A stretch of DNA of 64,000 nt from Mustelus asterias (lineage: Eukaryota), in assembly GCF_964213995.1 (NCBI RefSeq), contig NW_027590593.1:62001-126000 (forward strand). The letters are read 5' to 3'. Below the pieces are notes generated by a model. It made no database searches, was not told where the DNA came from, and was given only the letters and a program-made list of their open reading frames with translations. Below are positions 6,607 to 20,865 of this stretch, piece by piece; the first letter of the stretch is position 1, and each line of letters opens with the position of its first letter. Position numbers and translations under genes: made by a program.

Positions 6607-6732
6607 AGTGTGTTTGTTGTCACACTGTGACCCATCCCGTCAAATTCAGAGATTCTGCAAACTAGAACTTTATTATTTGACTGAATTTTCACCCTTTTCC
6701 AATTGTAAATTGAATGAATAGGTAAATCACCT

Positions 6733-7490
6733 TGGTTCACACACTCCCCTGGTTTAGACACTCCCCTGGTTTAGACACTCCCCTGGTTTAGACACTCCCC
6801 TGGTTTACACACTCCCCTGGTTTACACACTCCCCTGGTTTACACAATCCCCTGGTTTACACACTCCCCTGCTTTACACACTCCCCTGGTTTACACACTCC
6901 CCTGGTTTACACACTCCCCTGCTTTACACACTCCCCTGGTTTACACACTCCCCTGGTTTACACACTCCCCTGGTTTACACACACCCCTGGTTTACACACT
7001 CCCCTGGTTTACACACTCCCCTGGTTTACACACTCCCCTGCTTTACACACTCCCCTGGTTTACACACACCCCTGGTTTACCCACTCCCTCTGTCTATAAA
7101 CTCGTCTGGTTCACACACACTCCCCTTTTTTACACACTCCCCTGGTTTGCACACTCCCAGAGTTTACACACTCCTCTGGTTTGCACACTCTCCCTGTTTA
7201 TACTCTCCCCTGGTTTGCACACTTCCCGCATTGACACATACCCTTGGATTTAACACTTCCCTGGTTCGTACTCTTCCCTCCTTGCACATAATCCTCTGGT
7301 TTACACACTCTCTCCTCTTACTCACTGTCCTGGTGTGCACATATCCCCAGGTATACATGTTCCCCCACTTTACAATTTCCTGCTTCACGCCACTGGTATA
7401 TGCACTTCCCTGGTTTCACAAACTCACTTAATGTTACACAGTCTCTGGTTTTAAACATCCTCTGGTATACACAGTCCCCTGTTTTACAAC
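6733..7490. repeat. 17-bp minisatellite, short array
   Basis: About 20 near-perfect CTCCCCTGGTTTACACA units to about 7082, then degenerate units to about 7490. Confidence 0.95.
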
Positions 7491-7705: not shown

Positions 7706-9233
7706 ACATTTGGAATGCTGCATCCAGTTCTGGTCGCTGCACTACCAGAAGGACGTGGAAGCTTTGTAGAGAGTACAGAGAAGGTTTACCAGGATGTTGC
7801 CTGGTATGGAGGGTCTTAGCTATGAGGAGAGATTGATTAAACTGAGGTTGTTCTCCCTGGAAAGACGGAGGATGAGGGGCGACCTAATAGAGGTGTCTAA
7901 AATTATGAAGGGCATAGATAGGGTGAACAGTGGGAAGCTTTTTCCCAGGTCGGAGGTGACAAACACAAGGGGTCACGGGTTCAAGGTGAGGGGGCAAGGT
8001 TCAACACAGATGTCAGGGGGACGTATTTTACACAGAGGGTGGTGGGGGCCTGGAATGCACTGCCAAGCAAGGTGATTGAGGTGGACACGCTGGGATCATT
8101 TAAGACTTATCTAGATAGCCACATGAACAGACTGGGAATAGAGGGATCCAAAAGAATGGTCTAGTGGGCACATGTGCCCCAGGGATCTGTTCTGGGACCC
8201 TTGCTGTTTGTCATTTTCATAAATGACCTGGATGAGGAAGTGGAGGGATGGGTTGGTAAGTTTGCCGACGACACGAAGGTTGGTGGTGTTGTGGATAGGT
8301 TGGAGGCATGTCAGAAGCTGCAGCGTGACATAGATAGGATGCAAGACTGTGCAGGTGGACTTCAAGCAGGATAAATGTGTCGTGGACCATTTTGGCAGGT
8401 CAAATGGGATGAAGGAGTATAATATCAAGGGTAAGACTCTTTGCAGTGCAGAGGATCAGAAGGACCTCGGGGTCCGGGTCCATAGGACTCTTAAATCGGC
8501 CTCGCAGGTAGAGGAGGTGGTTAAGAAGGCGTATGGTGTGCTGGCCTTCATCAATCGAGGGATTGAGTTTAGGAGTCGGGAGATAATGCTGCAGCTTTAT
8601 AAGACCCTCATCAGACCCCACTTGGAGTACTGTGCTCAGTTCTGGTCACCTCATTACAGGAGAGATGTGGAAATGATTGAAAGGGTGCAGAGAAGATTTA
8701 CAAGGATGTTGCCTGGATTGGTTGGCATGCCTTATGAGGATAGGTTGAGGGAGCTTGGTCTTTTCTCCTTGGAGAGACGAAGGATGAGAGGTGACCTGAT
8801 AGAGGTGTACAAGATGTTGAGAGGTATATATCGGGTGGATTATGGGAGGCTTTTTCCCAGGGCTGAAATGGCTGCAACGAGAGGACACAGGTTTAAGGTG
8901 CTGGGGAGTAGGTACGGAGGAGATGTCAGGGGTAAGTCTTTCACTCTGAGGATGGTGGGTGAGTGGAATCGGCTGCCGTCAGTGGTGGTGGAGGCAAACT
9001 CAATAGGGTCTTTTAAGAGACTTCTGGATGAGTATGGGACTGAATAGGATTGAGGGTGATAGGTAAGCCTGTATGTAAGCCTAGGTAGGTAGGGACATGA
9101 CCGGCGCAACTTGTGGGCCGAAGGGCCTGTTTGTGCTGTATTTTTTCTATGTTCTATGTTCTATGAGCGGCGCAGGTTTGGAGGGCCGAAGGGCCTGTTC
9201 CTGTCCTGTATTGTTCTTTGTTCTTTGTTCTTT
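7706..9233 (+). mobile_element. CR1 3' fragment (host element), interrupted in its 3' UTR by a second CR1
   Basis: ORF 7794..8075 matches the CR1 ORF2 C-terminus; UTR resumes at 9166 and ends in (GTTCTTT)n; the same family is uninterrupted at 26988-27690. Confidence 0.85.
8172..9165 (+). mobile_element. CR1 LINE 3' fragment nested in another CR1
   Basis: PQGSVLGP...FADD (8174..8374), frameshifted continuation 8349..9047, (GTTCTAT)n tail; near-identical to the inverted copy within 1938-3572. Confidence 0.93.
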
Positions 9234-9429
9234 CTCTCTCTCGCTCGCTCTGTCTCAAATTCTGTGTGTCTCTCATTCATTTTATCTGTCTTTGGATGTC
9301 TCTCTCAAATTCTATCTCTCTCAATCTACTTCGCTTTCTGTGTCACTGTGCCGCCAATCTCAGTGTGACTCTCTATGTCTCTCTCTGCCTATTTCTTCCC
9401 ATCTCTCACTCTCTGTTTCTGTGTTACTG

Positions 9430-9589
9430 CAGTAAGAATTCTCACAACACCAGGTTAAAGTCCAACAGGTTTATTTGGCAGCAAAAGCCACTCGCTTTTG
9501 GAGCACTGCCCCTTCACCAGGGACTTTAACCTGGTGTTGTGAGACTTCTTACTGTGTTTACCCCTGTCCAACGCCGGCATCTCCACATC
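9430..9589. mobile_element. Short palindromic Penelope-like terminal remnant
   Basis: Inverted repeat 9430-9463 vs 9521-9554 sharing CAACACCAGGTTAAAGTCC with elements at 12411 and 13266; degenerate hammerhead core between the arms. Confidence 0.75.
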
Positions 9590-9948
9590 TGTGTTGCTGA
9601 GCAGTGCAAGAGGATAAACTCAAGGTTTAGTGAAGAGATCATTTGCATTTTCACCTTGAAGAAAGGTGCACAATCAATGTAATTTTATGAAAACACATCT
9701 GATTGTGATTGGCTGTTGCTGGGGAGTGAGGTTAACATACAATATGGGGGCAGAAAATACAGAGAGATGAACAAAGTGAATGGAGAATTTACGATTAACC
9801 AACATAACGTGGGATAAGTGTGGAAGAAAGCGACAATATGCCCTGGGAAGTTTGAATTGCAAAATCATTTTAGCCTGGGATTGTGTAGATGTGAATATTG
9901 TGCAGGAGAGAGTGTGTGATAGGGGCGGGGGAAACAGGAGAACATCAC

Positions 9949-10377
9949 TGTGTTTGTGTGTCCGTTCAGATCATGAGATCTCCGCATCATTCTTGCGTAA
10001 AATAAAAATATTTTTCAATCAAATTCTCCCCCTGTATCCCTCCTACTTCTCAAAGTTAGATTTCAATGCAATTTCTATGTCGGTTTCCAAATTTCAGTCG
10101 AAAAGTGAGGAAGATGACAGCGATGGGGTGAGAGAGCGCGAACAGTACAGCAGCGAAACGGGATTTAATCCCAAATGCAGCCTTCAATCCGGGTGAAATC
10201 TTTTCTACAACAGACATTAGGATGTCAGACACAGTGAGGATTGAACGTGGGACAGAGTGGAGTCGGGATTTGAGTGGAAATTGAGAGTTTGGGACGAGAG
10301 AGAAACACAGAGAAGGCAGCAGCAGCCTGGAGCTGACAGCAGCTTGTCTCCGCCCCGTCCGCTCGCTGCCTTTAAGT
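9949..10377 (+). promoter_or_regulatory. Histone H1 promoter (TG box, AC/H1 box, GC box, weak TATA)
   Basis: TGTGTTT 9949-9955, AAACACA 10303-10309, CCGCCC 10350-10355, TTTAAG at 10371. Confidence 0.7.
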
Positions 10378-10454
10378 TGCTCAGTGCCGCCTCCAGACGC
10401 TTCATTTCTCATCCAGTTCACATTGACGGAGAGATTTGGTGTAGAGTTCCGGAC

Positions 10455-11090
10455 ATGAGCGACAGTGCAGCCGCCGAAACGGCTCCTCCAGCCGCCGCCA
10501 CAGGCAAGACAGCCAAGAAGAAGAAGGCAGCGGCTCCCCGGAAGAAAGCAACAGGTCCCAGTCTGGGCGATCTGATCCTCCAGATCGTGGCGGAAAGCAA
10601 GGATCGCACGGGGATCTCCGCTGCCGCCATCAAGAAGGAGCTGCGGAGCAAAGGGGTGAATGTGGAGAAACGGGTGGCTCTGATCAGGCAAAGTTTAAGG
10701 AGGAATGTGGAAAATGGAAAGCTGATTCAGCTCCGTGGTACTGGCGCCTCCGGCTCCTACAGAATCGCTCAGAAAACAGCAGAGCGGAAAACTGTAAAGA
10801 AGGTAAAGTTAGGAGCGGCCAGGAAAACCCCAGTGAAGAAAGCGGTGGCCAAGAAAGCAACAAAGAAACCAGCAACAAAGAAACCAGCAGCCAAGAAACC
10901 AGCAGCCAAGAAACCAGCAGCCAAGAAAACAGTCAAGAAAACAACCAAGAAGGCGACAACACCAAAAAAGAGCGTGAAGAAAGTGACACCCAAGAAAAAG
11001 ATTGTTGTGAAGAAGGTCGCGAAGGGAAAGACATCAAAGGCCAAACCCAAGGCGGCTGCAGCAAAATCTAAGAAAGCAGGAAAGAAGTGA
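10455..11090 (+). CDS. H1: Linker histone H1 (211 aa), replication-dependent type
   Basis: ATG at 10455 within ORF 10257..11090; globular domain ending GTGASGSYRI, K/A/P-rich tail with TPKK sites, intronless, 3' stem-loop. Confidence 0.95.
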   Translation: MSDSAAAETAPPAAATGKTAKKKKAAAPRKKATGPSLGDLILQIVAESKDRTGISAAAIKKELRSKGVNVEKRVALIRQSLRRNVENGKLIQLRGTGASGSYRIAQKTAERKTVKKVKLGAARKTPVKKAVAKKATKKPATKKPAAKKPAAKKPAAKKTVKKTTKKATTPKKSVKKVTPKKKIVVKKVAKGKTSKAKPKAAAAKSKKAGKK

Positions 11091-11126
11091 AATACGCCGA
11101 GCAAATCCTAAACCTCTAAACCCAAA

Positions 11127-11167
11127 GGCTCTTCTCAGAGCCACCCACCTCTCTCAGGAATGAGCTG
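11127..11167 (+). terminator. Histone 3' stem-loop and downstream element (H1)
   Basis: GGCTCT-TCTC-AGAGCC then ACCCA, followed by purine-rich GAATGAGCTG. Confidence 0.92.
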
Positions 11168-11779
11168 AACTCCCCGCGGTCAATGAATCGCTGTCCCGGC
11201 GCTGGGAGCAGATTTCAGATAGAAATGTCAATCCAGTATTCCCGCTCACTCGCTGACATGTTCTAGACCCGGACCCCCCTCACACTCTGCACTCAAACAC
11301 AGGGATGTTGCTGCCTCTCCCTAACCCGGGAATGGCTCCAGGGGAACACTCACACTTTGTGTTAGTTTGTTTATTCACAGATTCAGGGTGTGGGTGTAAA
11401 AGAGGAATCCTGGCGGAGAAAGCCCACCTCACAATTCAAACCACAAACACATTTTATCAGCTGGGAGAGATCTGAATAAAATTCTGAACCCGTCTGGGAG
11501 AGGAGTTGTCGGGAATGGAGTCGGAGCTGGGACTGAAATGGGAGGAGGCAGTTCGACTGGTTATAGAAAGGATTGCACTGAGGCGGAATGTTACTGACAA
11601 GTCTGGATTGAATAGATCGGGTTCCTAACTAGCTTGTATCTGATATTCCAGTTTGTACGTTTTGTTCCTCGCGCTCTTTTCACTTCTGTTTGAATTTGAA
11701 TCAGAAATGTCGGTTCGAGCCGGCAGGAGGAGGAGCTGGATGGTGAAAGACATTTCACTGCTCTGTCTCTCAGTCTCCT

Positions 11780-11850
11780 TCCCGCCCCGCCTCTCTCTCT
11801 CTCTCTCTCTCGCTTTCTCAGTCAGGTCGGGGCGAGCTGTATAATAAAGG
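11780..11850 (+). promoter_or_regulatory. Histone H4 promoter
   Basis: CCCGCCCC GC box, (CT)n tract, site-II-like TTTCTCAGTCAGGTCGG, TATAATA 11840-11846. Confidence 0.6.
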
Positions 11851-11893
11851 AAGCTGCAGCAGCTCCTCTCTCATTCAGCAGCGATTTGACTGA

Positions 11894-12214
<321 letters not shown>

Positions 12215-12247
12215 ACAAATCCACCCAATTCTCACACAAAACTCAAA

Positions 12248-12263
12248 GGCTCTTTTCAGGGCC
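12248..12263 (+). terminator. Histone 3' stem-loop (H4)
   Basis: GGCTCT-TTTC-AGGGCC (one U-G pair), followed by GCCCA. Confidence 0.88.
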
Positions 12264-12410
12264 GCCCAAATCCTCACATTGAGAGCCCTGACCTCAATAC
12301 AGCAGCGGGCTGTTTCTCCATCTCGAATTTCATGCAGCTTTATCATCTCTTTAGGAATCGGACCATTCTGCATTATGCCTGTGACAATCCTGTTACACAA
12401 CAAACTAGAC

Positions 12411-13020
12411 TTTTAACAACACCAGGTTAAAGTCCAACAGGTTTATTTGGGAGCAAATACCATTAGCTTTTGGAGCGCTGCTCCTTCGTCAGATGGAGTG
12501 GAAATGTGCTCTCAAACAGGGCACAGAGACACAAAATCAAGTTACAGAATACTGATTAGAATGCGAATCTCGACAGCCAACCAGGTCTTAAAGATACAGA
12601 CAATGTGAGTGGAGGGAGCATTAAGCACAGGTTAAAGAGATGTGTATTGTCTCCAGACAGGAGAGCCCGCAAGTCCAGGAGGCAAGCTGTGGGGGTTACT
12701 TATAATGTGACATAAATCCAACATCCCGGTTTAGGCTGCCCTCATGTGTGTGGAACTTGGCTATCAGTTTCTGCTCAGCAACTGCGCTGTCGTGTGTTGT
12801 GAAGGCCGCCTTGGAGAACGCTTACCCGAAGATAAGAGGCTGAATGCCCGTGACTGCTGAACTGCTCCCCCACAGGAATATGTCATATTATCAGTAACCC
12901 TGAAGATCAGAACAGAATTCCCACTCACCTGAAGAAGGAGCTGAAGGCTCCGAAAGCTTGTGGCTTTTGCTACCAAATAAACTTGTTGGACTTTAACCTG
13001 GTGTTGTTAAACTTCTTACT
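12411..13020 (-). mobile_element. Penelope-like element fragment with inverted terminal repeats
   Basis: About 12700-12878 is the reverse complement of the GIY-YIG C-terminal region at about 13882-14064; ends 12411-12500 and 12910-13020 are inverted pseudo-LTR copies. Confidence 0.85.
12926..12962 (+). ncRNA. Minimal hammerhead ribozyme motif
   Basis: CAC-CTGAAGA-A-GGAGC(TGAAG)GCTCC-GAAA-GCTT-GTG. Confidence 0.7.
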
Positions 13021-13361
13021 CGGATAGAAAGACACAGTGGCTTTGAGATAGCAAAATAGTGAACAGAATGTGTCAGATTGGAAAACTTGCTGCAATTTCC
13101 TGTTAATCATTTATTACCATTAACATGTGTGGATATTTTAAGCTGATGTATCTTTTTATTCCATTCCTTCAGTCGGTCTGCTGCGATTTCAGTCCCTTCG
13201 ACCGTCGAAAGCTGTTTTTTAATCACTCCTTGAATCTACTGAATCCCTGCAGTGCAGAAAGAGATGATGTGGAGATGCCGGCGTTTTACTGGGGTAAACA
13301 CAGTAAGAAGTTTAACAACACCAGGTTAAAGTCCAACAGGTTTATTTGGGAGCAAAAGCCA

Positions 13362-13397
13362 CACAAGCTTTCGGAGCTCCAACCCCTTCTTCAGGTG
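13362..13397 (-). ncRNA. Minimal hammerhead ribozyme motif
   Basis: Minus strand CAC-CTGAAGA-A-GGGGTTGGAGCTCC-GAAA-GCTT-GTG. Confidence 0.62.
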
Positions 13398-14274
13398 AGT
13401 GGGAATTCTGTTCACAAACAGGGCATATAAAGACACAGACTCAATTTACATGAATAATGGTTGGAATGCGAATACTTACAGCTAATCAAGTCTTTAAGAT
13501 ACAAACAACGTACGTGGAGTGAGCCAAGGCCATCCCCACATCCCCACTTCTTGCCTTCAAACAACCGCACAACCTCAAACAGACCATTGTCCACAGCAAA
13601 CTACCCAGCCTTCAGGAGAACAGTGACCACGACACTACACAACCCTGCCACAGCAACCTCTGCAAGACGTGCCGGATCATTGACACAGATGCCATCATCT
13701 CACGTGAGAACACCATCCACCAGGTACACGGTACATACTCTTGCAACTCGGCCAACGTTGTCTACCTGATACGCTGCAAGAAAGGATGTCCCGAGGCATG
13801 GTACATTGGGGAAACCATGCAGACGCTGCGACAACGGATGAATGAACACCGCTTGACAATCACCAGGCAAGACTGTTCTCTTCCTGTTGGGGAGCACTTC
13901 AGCGGTCACGGGCATTCGGCCTCTGAGATTCGGGTAAGCGTTCTCCAAGGCAGCCTTCGCGACACACGACGGCGCAGAGTCGCTGAGCAGAAACTGACAG
14001 CCAAGTTCCACACACGCGAGGACAGCCTCAACCGGGATCTTGGGTTCATGTCACACTATTTGTAACCCCCACAGCGTGCCTGGACCTGCAGAGTTTCATT
14101 GGCTGTCTTGCCTGGAGACAATACACATCTTTTTAGCCTGTCTTGATGCTCTCTCCACTCACGTTGTTCGTATCTTAAAGACTTGATTAGCTGTAAGTAT
14201 TCACATTCCAAACATTATTCATGTAAGTTGAGTCTGTGTCTATATATGCCCTGTTTGTGAACAGAATTCCCACT

Positions 14275-14311
14275 CACCTGAAGAAGGGGCTTGGAGCTCC
14301 GAAAGCTTGTG
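14275..14311 (+). ncRNA. Minimal hammerhead ribozyme motif
   Basis: CAC-CTGAAGA-A-GGGGC(TTGGA)GCTCC-GAAA-GCTT-GTG. Confidence 0.7.
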
Positions 14312-14577
14312 GCTTTTGCTACCAAATAAACCTGTTGAACTTTAACCTGGTGTTATTAAACTTCTTACTGTGCAGAAAGAAGCCATCCTTCATGGTGAAG
14401 TGTGTGTGTGACTCTGTGTTTTGCGCCTATCACTGGGAGTTTGCTCCCAGCCTGTTCTGGCTCGATCACGGAATGAATCTGAATGTGTTCCTGGTGCGAA
14501 GGCAGTGAGGAAAAGTTTGCAGTGAAATTGGCGGTCTTTTTGGCGGTGAATTTTGAAAATCAGGCGCCATCCGAGCT

Positions 14578-15141
<564 letters not shown>

Positions 15142-15188
15142 ACTGCCCGGACCCACTATTGGCCTTTGAAATCCAAAAATAAACAAAA

Positions 15189-15227
15189 GGCTCTTTTCAG
15201 AGCCACCAAATCCATCAAAAGGAGCAG
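15189..15227 (+). terminator. Histone 3' stem-loop and downstream element (H3)
   Basis: GGCTCT-TTTC-AGAGCC then ACCA, followed by AAAAGGAGCAG. Confidence 0.93.
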
Positions 15228-15329
15228 TAATTGGCATGTTGTGCGTCTTCGGTTCAAGTGTACCTGGCATTTGCTAACTCCCAATCCGATTTTGCAGCTG
15301 TTGAATCCGAATAAGCCATTTTTACGTGA

Positions 15330-15655
15330 TTAATACGACAAGTGTGGGTATTTGGGCCTCGTTCTGCTGCCCGTCCAGCGATCTAGAAATGATTCCCGAT
15401 TCCCAAACCGCATGCAGGGGAAGGGCCTCTGTTTCTGCTGTGATATGGTTTCATTCATGGGCTGTGGGTTTCTCTGCGTTTCCGTTGTCCCAGATTGCAT
15501 GTCGGTTTGAAATTCATTTGGGTAAAGATAGTAGCTTCCCAAAAGGTATTTCGTTTTCTTAACCCATTCCATCGTCTGCGTGGTGGGATTCGAACCTTTG
15601 TGTTCTCCGGAGAATTATCATGGGTCTCTGTATTGCGCTCCGCTACTGCCTCCCT
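15330..15655 (-). mobile_element. Old tRNA-derived SINE remnant (possibly DeuSINE-like)
   Basis: B box GGTTCGAATCC on minus at 15586-15596 after a GGGAGGCAGTAGCG head; no cloverleaf; family assignment from memory only. Confidence 0.4.
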
Positions 15656-16042: not shown

Positions 16043-16314
16043 CTACACATCTTGGATATTAGGCAGCACCCCGCCCTGAGCGATGGTCACCTCTCCCAGC
16101 AGCATGTTGTATCCTCGTCGTTGCGCACGGCCAGCTGGAGGTGTCTGGGGATGATGCGGCTCTTCTCCCGGGCCGCGTTGCCGGCCAGCTCCAGGATTTC
16201 AGCCGTCAGATACTCGAGCACTGCAGCCAAGTAGACCGGGGCTCCGGCACCCACACGCTCCGCATAGTTGTCCTTTTTCAGGAGCCTGTGAACACGGCCC
16301 ACCGGGAACAGCAG
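16043..16314 (-). pseudogene. H2A: Histone H2A pseudogene fragment
   Basis: [10 protein letters not shown]...[15 protein letters not shown] core present; N-terminal tail absent, 2-codon deletion at DNKK, 1-bp frameshift near 16110, TAG after GGVLPNIQDV, no stem-loop. Confidence 0.92.
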
Positions 16315-17027
16315 TATTTCTAAAAGAAAATTCACATCCAAAATAAAGGCGGCAACCTTGCGGAATCTAAACTTTTAAAGTAAACCGTCGATGTATTTGT
16401 AAGTTAAGGAACAAGTTACAAATGGAAATTAGTCCGTAGTTAAAATATTGAATGAACAAGATTTACACGGTCGTCCTACCTCTTTCGAATGGTCTAAATT
16501 TAGTCACAAATTCCAAGTTCATTTTTACAATCCGGAGTATGATCAAGATGAATCTGGCAATTGTTTAAACCTGTCTGACCAGGAGCCAGAATGTCTCATT
16601 CACCGCCCCCTGCAAATAGTCTAATGTATCCATTTTGTAATAGGCTACAAATTCAGTGTCAAAAGCGGAGTTTTCACTTTTGGTGCCAGCTTGCCAATAT
16701 GGAGACTGACGTTTCGACACCAGTAAGGTTGATGTTTAGCAAACTGAATGAGAGCATTCTTTAACTCAAAGAAACGGACGCATTTCCGATTTATTCGCTC
16801 TCTGTGCAAACCCAGCGACAAGGGCGGATATCAGAGCGCAGCCAGGGTCACCGAGCAGCCACTAAATGTAGCGACTTTACGAACAAAACACGAAGATCCA
16901 CGGGACTCATTCTGCATCACTCAATCCTCTGAAACACATCAGAAAATAAAGTTCAAAGTACATTATTATTGACGATAAAACATCAATTACTAAAAGTGGG
17001 CTTAGCTACTTCATAGAAGTTGTGGGT

Positions 17028-17075: not shown

Positions 17076-17456
17076 TTACTTGGAGCTGGTGTACTTGGTC
17101 ACCGCCTTTGTCCCCTCCGACACGGCGTGTTTGGCCAGTTCCCCGGGCAGCAGCAGGCGCACGGCGGTCTGGATCTCCCGGGAGCTGATGGTGCTGCGCT
17201 TGTTGTAATGGGCCAGGCGGGAAGCTTCACCCGCGATGCGCTCGAAGATGTCGTTAACGAACGAGTTCATGATGCTCATGGCCTTGGAGGAGATGCCGGT
17301 GTCGGGGTGAACCTGCTTCATCACTTTGTAGATGTAGATGCCGTAACTCTCCCTCCTGGACCTCCTCTTCTTCTTGCCACTCTTGGTTGTCGGTTTCTTC
17401 AGGGCTTTCTTGCCGCCCTTCTTGGAAATTTGCTGCTGCTTCTTATCCTCACCCAT
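17076..17456 (-). CDS. H2B: Histone H2B (126 aa) with a non-canonical N-terminal tail
   Basis: ATG at 17456 (the track start at 17468 is TTG); [14 protein letters not shown]...AVTKYTSSK core. Confidence 0.97.
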
Positions 17457-19695: not shown

Positions 19696-19775
19696 AAATA
19701 AACCTGTTGGACTTTAACCTGGTGTTGTGAGAATTCTAACTGTGACCACCCCAGTCCAACACCGGCATCTCCACA
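19696..19775 (+). mobile_element. Penelope-like terminal fragment
   Basis: AAATAAACCTGTTGGACTTTAACCTGGTGTTG...GGCATCTCCACA shared with 9521-9589 and 14324-14372. Confidence 0.75.
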
Positions 19776-20865
19776 ACATAGAGGATCATGGACAGTTGGT
19801 ACATGGAAATCACACCACATGCAAGTTCACCTCCAATTCAAAGACCACTATGACTTGAAATTATATCAATCACCATTCCTTCATTGTTATTGGAGTAAAA
19901 TATTCACTCTTCCCACCTATCTCGAACATGGCTGTACCTTTCGCAGACAGCATGGTGCAAGGAGGTGGTTCTAAGATGACTAGTGCAGAACAAATTGCTC
20001 ACCTTTCTCTGTTCAAAGAACAAATATAATCAGTCTGGTAAGTGATCTGTATGTGAAATACATTTGATCTGCATCTGTTCATCACTGGTTCATAAGTCAT
20101 TCTATATATGTGGTTGTGGGATGAATTTTCATCATTCTTTGAGTTCGTTTGTGAGGTTTTATCTCCTTCAATATCGGCTACTTTCTTTTCTGTCATTTTC
20201 TGGTATGTGTGCATGAATACAATTCAATATTAGATTGTCGCTGGGATGACTGCAACTAAAGGATTCACGCTGTATGTTCTAGCTCCTTGAGATGCACATG
20301 AATGAATGTGTTCTGTATCTGTCACACTCATTTATGTTTTTGTGATTGTATGATTTATTCTCTATCTGTCAGTTTGGTACTTTGTGCACATATAGGATTC
20401 ACTCTGCAGCACTCAGTCTCCAATCACAATGTACGAGAGATCAAGTTTTTTTCAGTCTCTTATCCTATGTGAATGTTGTTATCAATCTGTACCTTTCTGT
20501 AATTGTGATCTTCAGTCCTTGGGACACTGTCAGTGTGGCTCTCTATTTTTATCACTTCAACTTAAGGGTGTGAGTGTCATCTATTGCAGCTGTGTTGTTA
20601 TGTCCTAATTCTGCAAATGCTAGGCCCTCCTTTGGAATGGGAGTGTGGTTTATATTCACTATCTTGTCCTGTACACCAGTATGGCCTATTTTCTCTTCCT
20701 GCCATTCTCTGTTAATAAATCTGAAAGCTAGTTTACTTCTGTACCTGTCAATCCGTGTGCTGTATGTGAAAGGTCTGTACATTATGTACAGTTTTCTCTA
20801 TGATACAGTGTCTGAGATTGAGATGAATTAAGTACTTGTCAGCCCATGGAATCAAATACAATGTT

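Follow-up and report, generated by a model that had tools for sequence, protein, structure and literature searches.

Minimal hammerhead motifs in a histone H4-H3 spacer of Mustelus asterias lie within truncated Penelope-like insertions

Hammerhead motifs between H4 and H3

The spacer between the histone H4 and H3 genes of Mustelus asterias contains several sequences resembling minimal hammerhead ribozymes, which raises the question of whether they act on RNA made at this locus or were merely carried there by a mobile element. To answer it, we analysed a 64-kb stretch of DNA around the spacer (the window) and surveyed the genome, 3.68 Gb in 5,313 contigs. We put at about 90% the probability that these sequences represent minimal type I hammerheads carried in the pseudo-LTR ends of 5'-truncated copies of a very abundant Penelope-like element, which are likely neutral in the spacer and predicted to leave any RNA made there uncut.

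The histone cluster consists of the open reading frames of H1 (10455-11090, 211 aa, with a canonical stem-loop), H4 (11903..12214, 103 aa) and H3 (14731..15141, 136 aa) on the plus strand, and of H2A and H2B on the minus strand. The H2A-like sequence (16071-16330), located between H3 and H2B, is a broken fragment with frameshifts and without its N-terminus, while the H2B frame (17076-17456) has an unusual N-terminal tail and is possibly a variant. Four further stem-loop motifs occur within 10 kb upstream of the cluster. A 17-bp tandem repeat array (about 31700-64000 and 6730-7490) fills half of the window, in which CR1-like LINE fragments are also present.

The sequence-only reading had placed four hammerhead cores in the spacer, and all four were located at the positions it gave. 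Two on the plus strand are intact, one at 12926..12962 (C3 at 12929, N17 at 12959, predicted cut between 12959 and 12960) and one at 14275..14311 (C3 at 14278, N17 at 14308, predicted cut between 14308 and 14309); their measured spacing of 1,349 bases agrees with the 1.35 kb given before. The third, also intact, lies on the minus strand at 13362..13397 (C3 at 13394, N17 at 13365) and is antisense to the plus-strand copies in plus-strand RNA. The fourth, at 12460..12496 on the minus strand (C3 at 12492, N17 at 12464; stem I CCAU/AUGG), does show the described change of GAAA to AAAA, that is G12>A, and is predicted to be inactive because G12, described as the general base in hammerhead catalysis (PMC6155905), has become A. 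The decayed fifth motif suspected near 9488 was found at 9488-9520 on the minus strand with three core changes (A6>G, G12>A and U16.1>G) and without the 5' strand of stem I. The core CUGANGA ... GAAA ... UH is therefore complete in three of the five window copies.

All four spacer copies have an extra A between A9 and G10.1, a G10.1-C11.1 pair, a 5-bp stem II, and AGCU (15.1-16.1) in place of stem III. The short palindrome proposed as a reduced stem III is thus real, but its common form is AGCU and not AAGCUU, which takes in A14 and N17 and reads AAGCUA in the 12460 copy. Stem II does pair beneath different loops, as proposed; among the four copies this amounts to an A-U/G-U change and altered loop letters, with no two-sided change. 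Stem I does covary, pair 2.1:1.1 being the only one of the four-copy comparison to change on both sides. A model search with Rfam, suggested as a check, recovered no hammerhead family in the window: three hits reached the gathering score over its full length and 11 were returned for 9000-15500 at E<=10, none of them to a hammerhead family. The mir-3015 hits of Rfam at 9440-9544 were set aside, being the fold-back stub of a Penelope-like element described below.

Penelope-like insertions in the spacer

Self-comparison of the spacer revealed repeats far longer than the hammerhead motifs. The sequence from 13263 to 14369 is one insertion flanked by identical 11-bp target-site duplications (13252..13262 and 14370..14380). 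It begins with an inverted, 5'-truncated arm of pseudo-LTR on the minus strand (13263..13524; 94% identical to 14148-14372), whose tail of about 36 bp lies at 13263-13298; this is followed by the C-terminal 180 aa of a Penelope-like open reading frame (13523..14062, plus strand, with no start and no reverse transcriptase), which holds the end of a GIY-YIG domain, and by a 3' pseudo-LTR of subfamily A (14148..14369, plus strand). Accordingly, although the four motifs are real, they are not independent, since 13362(-) and 14275(+) are the two arms of this one insertion.

The remaining two spacer motifs lie to its left. A 5'-truncated copy of subfamily B on the minus strand (12412..12878), comprising the end of the GIY-YIG frame and a pseudo-LTR, is 82% identical to 13881-14360 and has sister copies 99% identical to it elsewhere in the genome, and a short pseudo-LTR fragment of subfamily A occupies 12910..13020 on the plus strand. 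No target-site duplication was found around the composite 12407-13021. The decayed fifth motif is held by a fold-back stub of the same element family (9430..9589), bounded by a 10-bp duplication with one mismatch (9420-9429/9590-9599). A further stub of this family (19696-19779) matches the element only in the tail and in the part that follows the hammerhead.

The GIY-YIG end encoded in the window scored 22.5 bits against PF01541 (E 1.4e-4), just under the cut-off of 22.6. The 180-aa peptide possesses a CX4CxxC linker at residue 42, two Cys between its VVY and YIG motifs, and EH at 108 and 124. It is identical at 165 of 180 positions to a sister copy (L095) in which RVT_1 (E 1.2e-9) lies upstream of a GIY-YIG domain scoring above the cut-off, in a broken frame. 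The GIY-YIG end, inverted arm, tail and target duplication in the window, together with the reverse transcriptase and GIY-YIG of this sister copy, uphold the earlier attribution of the motifs to minimal type I hammerheads of Penelope pseudo-LTRs. By architecture and motif, the window copies are shown to be pseudo-LTR hammerheads of 5'-truncated Penelope-like insertions, which is a matter of identity and not of cleavage.

Minimal hammerheads in Penelope pseudo-LTRs are already known, and the window copies are another instance. As described for metazoan Penelope-like elements (PMC4209133), they are of type I without helix III, with a palindrome at 15.2-16.2, an extra base between 9 and 10.1, a G10.1-C11.1 pair and a short helix I, and the described copies are likewise mostly dispersed and truncated, with opposite-strand pairs 100-700 bp apart. 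Helix II differs, having 5 bp here and 7-8 bp in the Schistosoma families of that report. We found no cartilaginous fish named among its hosts, though its supplements may list some.

The coding remnants can be compared with endonuclease-containing Penelope-like elements of the Neptune/Nematis type, for which PMC8557442 describes a reverse transcriptase followed by GIY-YIG, a CX2-5CxxC linker before the endonuclease and two Cys between the GIY-like and YIG motifs. Truncation at the 5' end, an inverted 5' copy, a one-sided tail of 30-40 bp and a target duplication are likewise shared with such elements (PMC8557442, PMC3846280). By its linker and CCHH motif alone the element would fit the Neptune/Nematis type, a placement by motif in a window that, unlike the elements described, holds 3' fragments only. 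The PAc element, a Poseidon of Anolis (PMC11167929), also carries a pseudo-LTR hammerhead upstream of the tail that marks insertion 3' ends; Poseidon is described as lacking a zinc finger in the linker (PMC8557442), whereas the window element has one. Non-LTR retrozymes (bioRxiv 10.64898/2026.07.22.740005), reported in one chondrichthyan genome, have type I hammerheads related to those of Penelope pseudo-LTRs; they are ORF-less head-to-tail tandem units, a definition that the window copies do not fit, as they stand head to head and retain GIY-YIG coding remnants.

By analogy with such systems, two motif copies of the parent element would pair via the AGCU palindrome, swap stem I strands and cut after N17, and work on other Penelope-like elements suggests that the element's protein probably assists this dimer cleavage. 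In the scheme we propose, insertion leaves a forward truncated copy head to head with an inverted one, a one-sided tail and a target duplication, the arrangement observed in the spacer. Donor-like GTAAGT sites and an AG at 14194-14265, immediately 5' of the hammerhead, may delimit a short intron in the pseudo-LTR; introns are described in some Penelope-like pseudo-LTRs (PMC4209133, PMC6765202).

Predicted behaviour of RNA made in the spacer

Histone mRNAs normally end via U7-directed cleavage 3' of a stem-loop. The H4 stem-loop (12248..12263, plus strand) contains one G-U pair and is followed by GCCCA rather than ACCCA, and its Rfam Histone3 score of 18.2 bits is below the gathering score of 34 and well below those of the H1, H3 and H2B stem-loops. 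Since it is slightly off the consensus, some read-through is possible, and this would favour the earlier proposal that, within a read-through RNA from H4, the two plus-strand copies form a dimer and cleave it upstream of H3, which would insulate H3. Neither plus-strand core is decayed, the two have the AGCU palindrome in common, and an active dimer of them, taken in isolation, has a favourable computed energy of -17.1 kcal/mol; however, they can also adopt an inactive fold of lower energy, -28.2 kcal/mol.

In the context of the spacer, folding argues further against this proposal. The minimum-energy fold of 12265-14380 pairs 33 of 37 bases of the first plus-strand motif and 30 of 37 of the second with antisense copies, which are thus predicted to sequester both. 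The antisense duplexes are calculated at -129 (the subfamily B copy with the pseudo-LTR of the 12926 motif), -182, -370 and -675 kcal/mol, and enforcing the active dimer costs 276 kcal/mol in 12265-14380 and 76 kcal/mol in 12900-14380; these values come from minimum-energy, nearest-neighbour folds of 1.5-2.1 kb that are crude at that length and ignore proteins, kinetics, A-to-I editing and hammerhead tertiary structure. The 12926 copy would also meet the antisense subfamily B copy before the 14275 copy has been transcribed. RNA transcribed across the insertion would hold both the forward motif and, in the inverted arm, its complement, and is therefore predicted to form a long hairpin and not a ribozyme. 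A domesticated host ribozyme would be expected to be transcribed, to fold in its context and to be conserved at the orthologous site; of these three marks, the second is argued against by the predicted folding.

Three further observations weigh against cleavage of a read-through transcript. An AATAAA in the pseudo-LTR (12976..12981, plus strand), which may be a poly(A) signal for read-through RNA, precedes the second plus-strand copy. A second assembled copy of the region, on C5 and either an allele or a recent duplicate, is 99.5-99.7% identical over 7601-31000, with identical letters in the H4 stem-loop region (12248-12268), yet carries a 2.1-kb CR1-like LINE fragment at window position 12780, inside the subfamily B copy (G000:C5:146096701-146098800), a single event. 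Finally, such dimers are reported to have low activity in vitro (PMC4209133), and the Anolis element is described as inactive without its protein (PMC11167929). We therefore consider cutting of an H4 read-through transcript by a plus-strand dimer extremely improbable.

Abundance, covariation and 5' ends across the genome

A search of the genome with one tight pattern returned 103,027 exact core matches (51,452 and 51,575 on the two strands), and the reversed-pattern control returned none, which excludes the motif as a chance event. This number is more than ten times the largest counts of PMC4209133 (about 9,000 in Xenopus tropicalis and 4,000 in coelacanth), which were obtained by different methods. 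At one match per 35.7 kb, a stretch of 64 kb should contain 1.8; this window contains three by that pattern and is therefore not unusually rich. Among the first 100 matches listed, neighbours stood no more than 2.5 kb apart in 25 of 99 cases, comprising 18 head-to-head (minus-plus), one plus-minus and six same-strand pairs. A local cluster of motifs such as the one in the spacer is thus explained by the paired, head-to-head arms of insertions, and the locus itself, with ordinary transposon remnants in a histone cluster, carries little weight.

The G12 change of the 12460 copy is common. G12>A was found in 9,915 matches (9.6%) and G12>C or T together in 396, a 50-fold excess per change, while about 93,000 pattern matches keep G12. 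This excess fits decay of methylated CpG, given the standard vertebrate mutation bias, and the proposed scheme accordingly has landed copies decaying mostly at CpG, as the matches show. We rejected the idea that the change to AAAA is a deliberately inactivated form, since it follows the CpG transition bias and is found in both subfamilies.

The abundance of matches with G12 and a common palindrome invites another possibility, namely that a spacer transcript pairs in trans with other AGCU-core RNAs as part of a weak genome-wide cleavage network, in which any two copies whose stem I agrees might in theory dimerise. The intermolecular helices, however, would be only 3-4 bp, the antisense arms in cis are predicted to dominate at the locus, and Anolis RNA-seq is reported to hold no reads starting or ending at the cut site (PMC11167929), all of which makes such a network very unlikely.

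Covariation was examined by core-anchored counts in 30 position-ordered loci of the core pattern, in which stem I and N17 were left free. Stem II, the palindrome, the extra base and the G10.1-C11.1 pair were fixed by this pattern and provide no evidence in this set. At pair 2.1:1.1, 16 of the 30 copies have C-G and 14 have U-A; the first three pairs of stem I hold in 30, 27 and 29 copies and the fourth in 17, and N17 is never G. Another hammerhead family (3,691 matches, control 29) has ACGU as its palindrome; the letters of both stems are different there as well, and pairing is kept in 21-30 of 30 copies per pair. With the extra base after A9 left free, it is A in 26 of 30 copies of this family. 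Between the two families, A-U/C-G changes occur at 2.2:1.2, C-G/G-C at 2.3:1.3 and G-C/U-A at 10.4:11.4. Similarity among ACGU copies seems to start only about 4 bases before the core.

Comparison of these two sets of 30 loci reveals covariation in helices I and II, its counts reflecting a few subfamily changes and not independent events, which suggests selection on active elements rather than on the window copies. A MAFFT alignment of 19 motifs was set aside, as six ACGT rows were one column out of register around GAAA; it had given 79.9% paired, with its covariation score reached by 0 of 500 shuffles and its number of two-sided pairs by 394 of 500.

If the parent RNA is cut after N17, copies reverse-transcribed from the product would start at 1.1. 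We counted starts in the GTGTGG subfamily with patterns requiring two non-element bases before a given start, and compared three neighbouring positions, keeping in mind that junction microhomology can shift such calls. There were 1,594 starts at 1.1, 425 at 17, 422 at 16.1 and 415 at 1.2 (622 when scaled to allow for a stricter pattern), and none in the controls. Assuming 28% T in the flanks, about 3,075 GTGTGG copies are estimated to start at 1.1, and chance matches from these copies, 484 by themselves, would cover the count at 17. None of 20 fetched loci starting at 1.1 has a hammerhead upstream; 18 join an inverted copy and two join flanking sequence.

We lean, by somewhat more than an even chance, to interpreting the GTGTGG copies that start at 1.1 as a germline fossil record in which ribozyme-cleaved RNA served as the template for reverse transcription. 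If this is true, it would count as in vivo evidence for cutting by the minimal hammerheads of Penelope elements as they transpose, and it concerns the family and not the H4-H3 spacer. Such evidence is stated to be absent in PMC4209133, and a search by title and abstract start found no published report of a 5'-end footprint of this kind; the supplements of PMC4209133 and of 10.64898/2026.07.22.740005 may list cartilaginous-fish motifs. The pile-up makes the question of in vivo cutting testable from genomes alone, and more than 100,000 cores are a very large natural sample of minimal hammerheads. It also differs from the situation reported for PAc, with no reads at the cut site and cleavage unneeded in vitro (PMC11167929), in that 5' ends accumulate at the predicted cut in one subfamily here.

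A competing explanation is that the motif is kept for a non-catalytic role, either protein binding or a fold at which reverse transcriptase stalls, and that no cutting takes place in the parent element either. We regard this as unlikely, because the core is preserved letter for letter between families whose helices are all different, and because the Anolis motif is reported to cleave in the presence of its protein and to lose this activity with C3 or G8 changes (PMC11167929). The same report nevertheless describes catalytic mutants that left insertion of the Anolis element in vitro unaffected. Moreover, the AAGCUU palindrome of subfamily A ends at U17, and a polymerase stalling there would therefore mimic cleavage by likewise yielding copies that start at 1.1. 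Subfamily B, in which a clear peak is missing, also speaks for a non-catalytic role: its 1,410 footprint matches formed no sharp peak, and the first 30 loci comprised four full motifs with internal changes, six copies starting after 1.1, seven that started at 1.1 and were preceded by C or G, and 13 whose start could be assigned to either 1.1 or 17.
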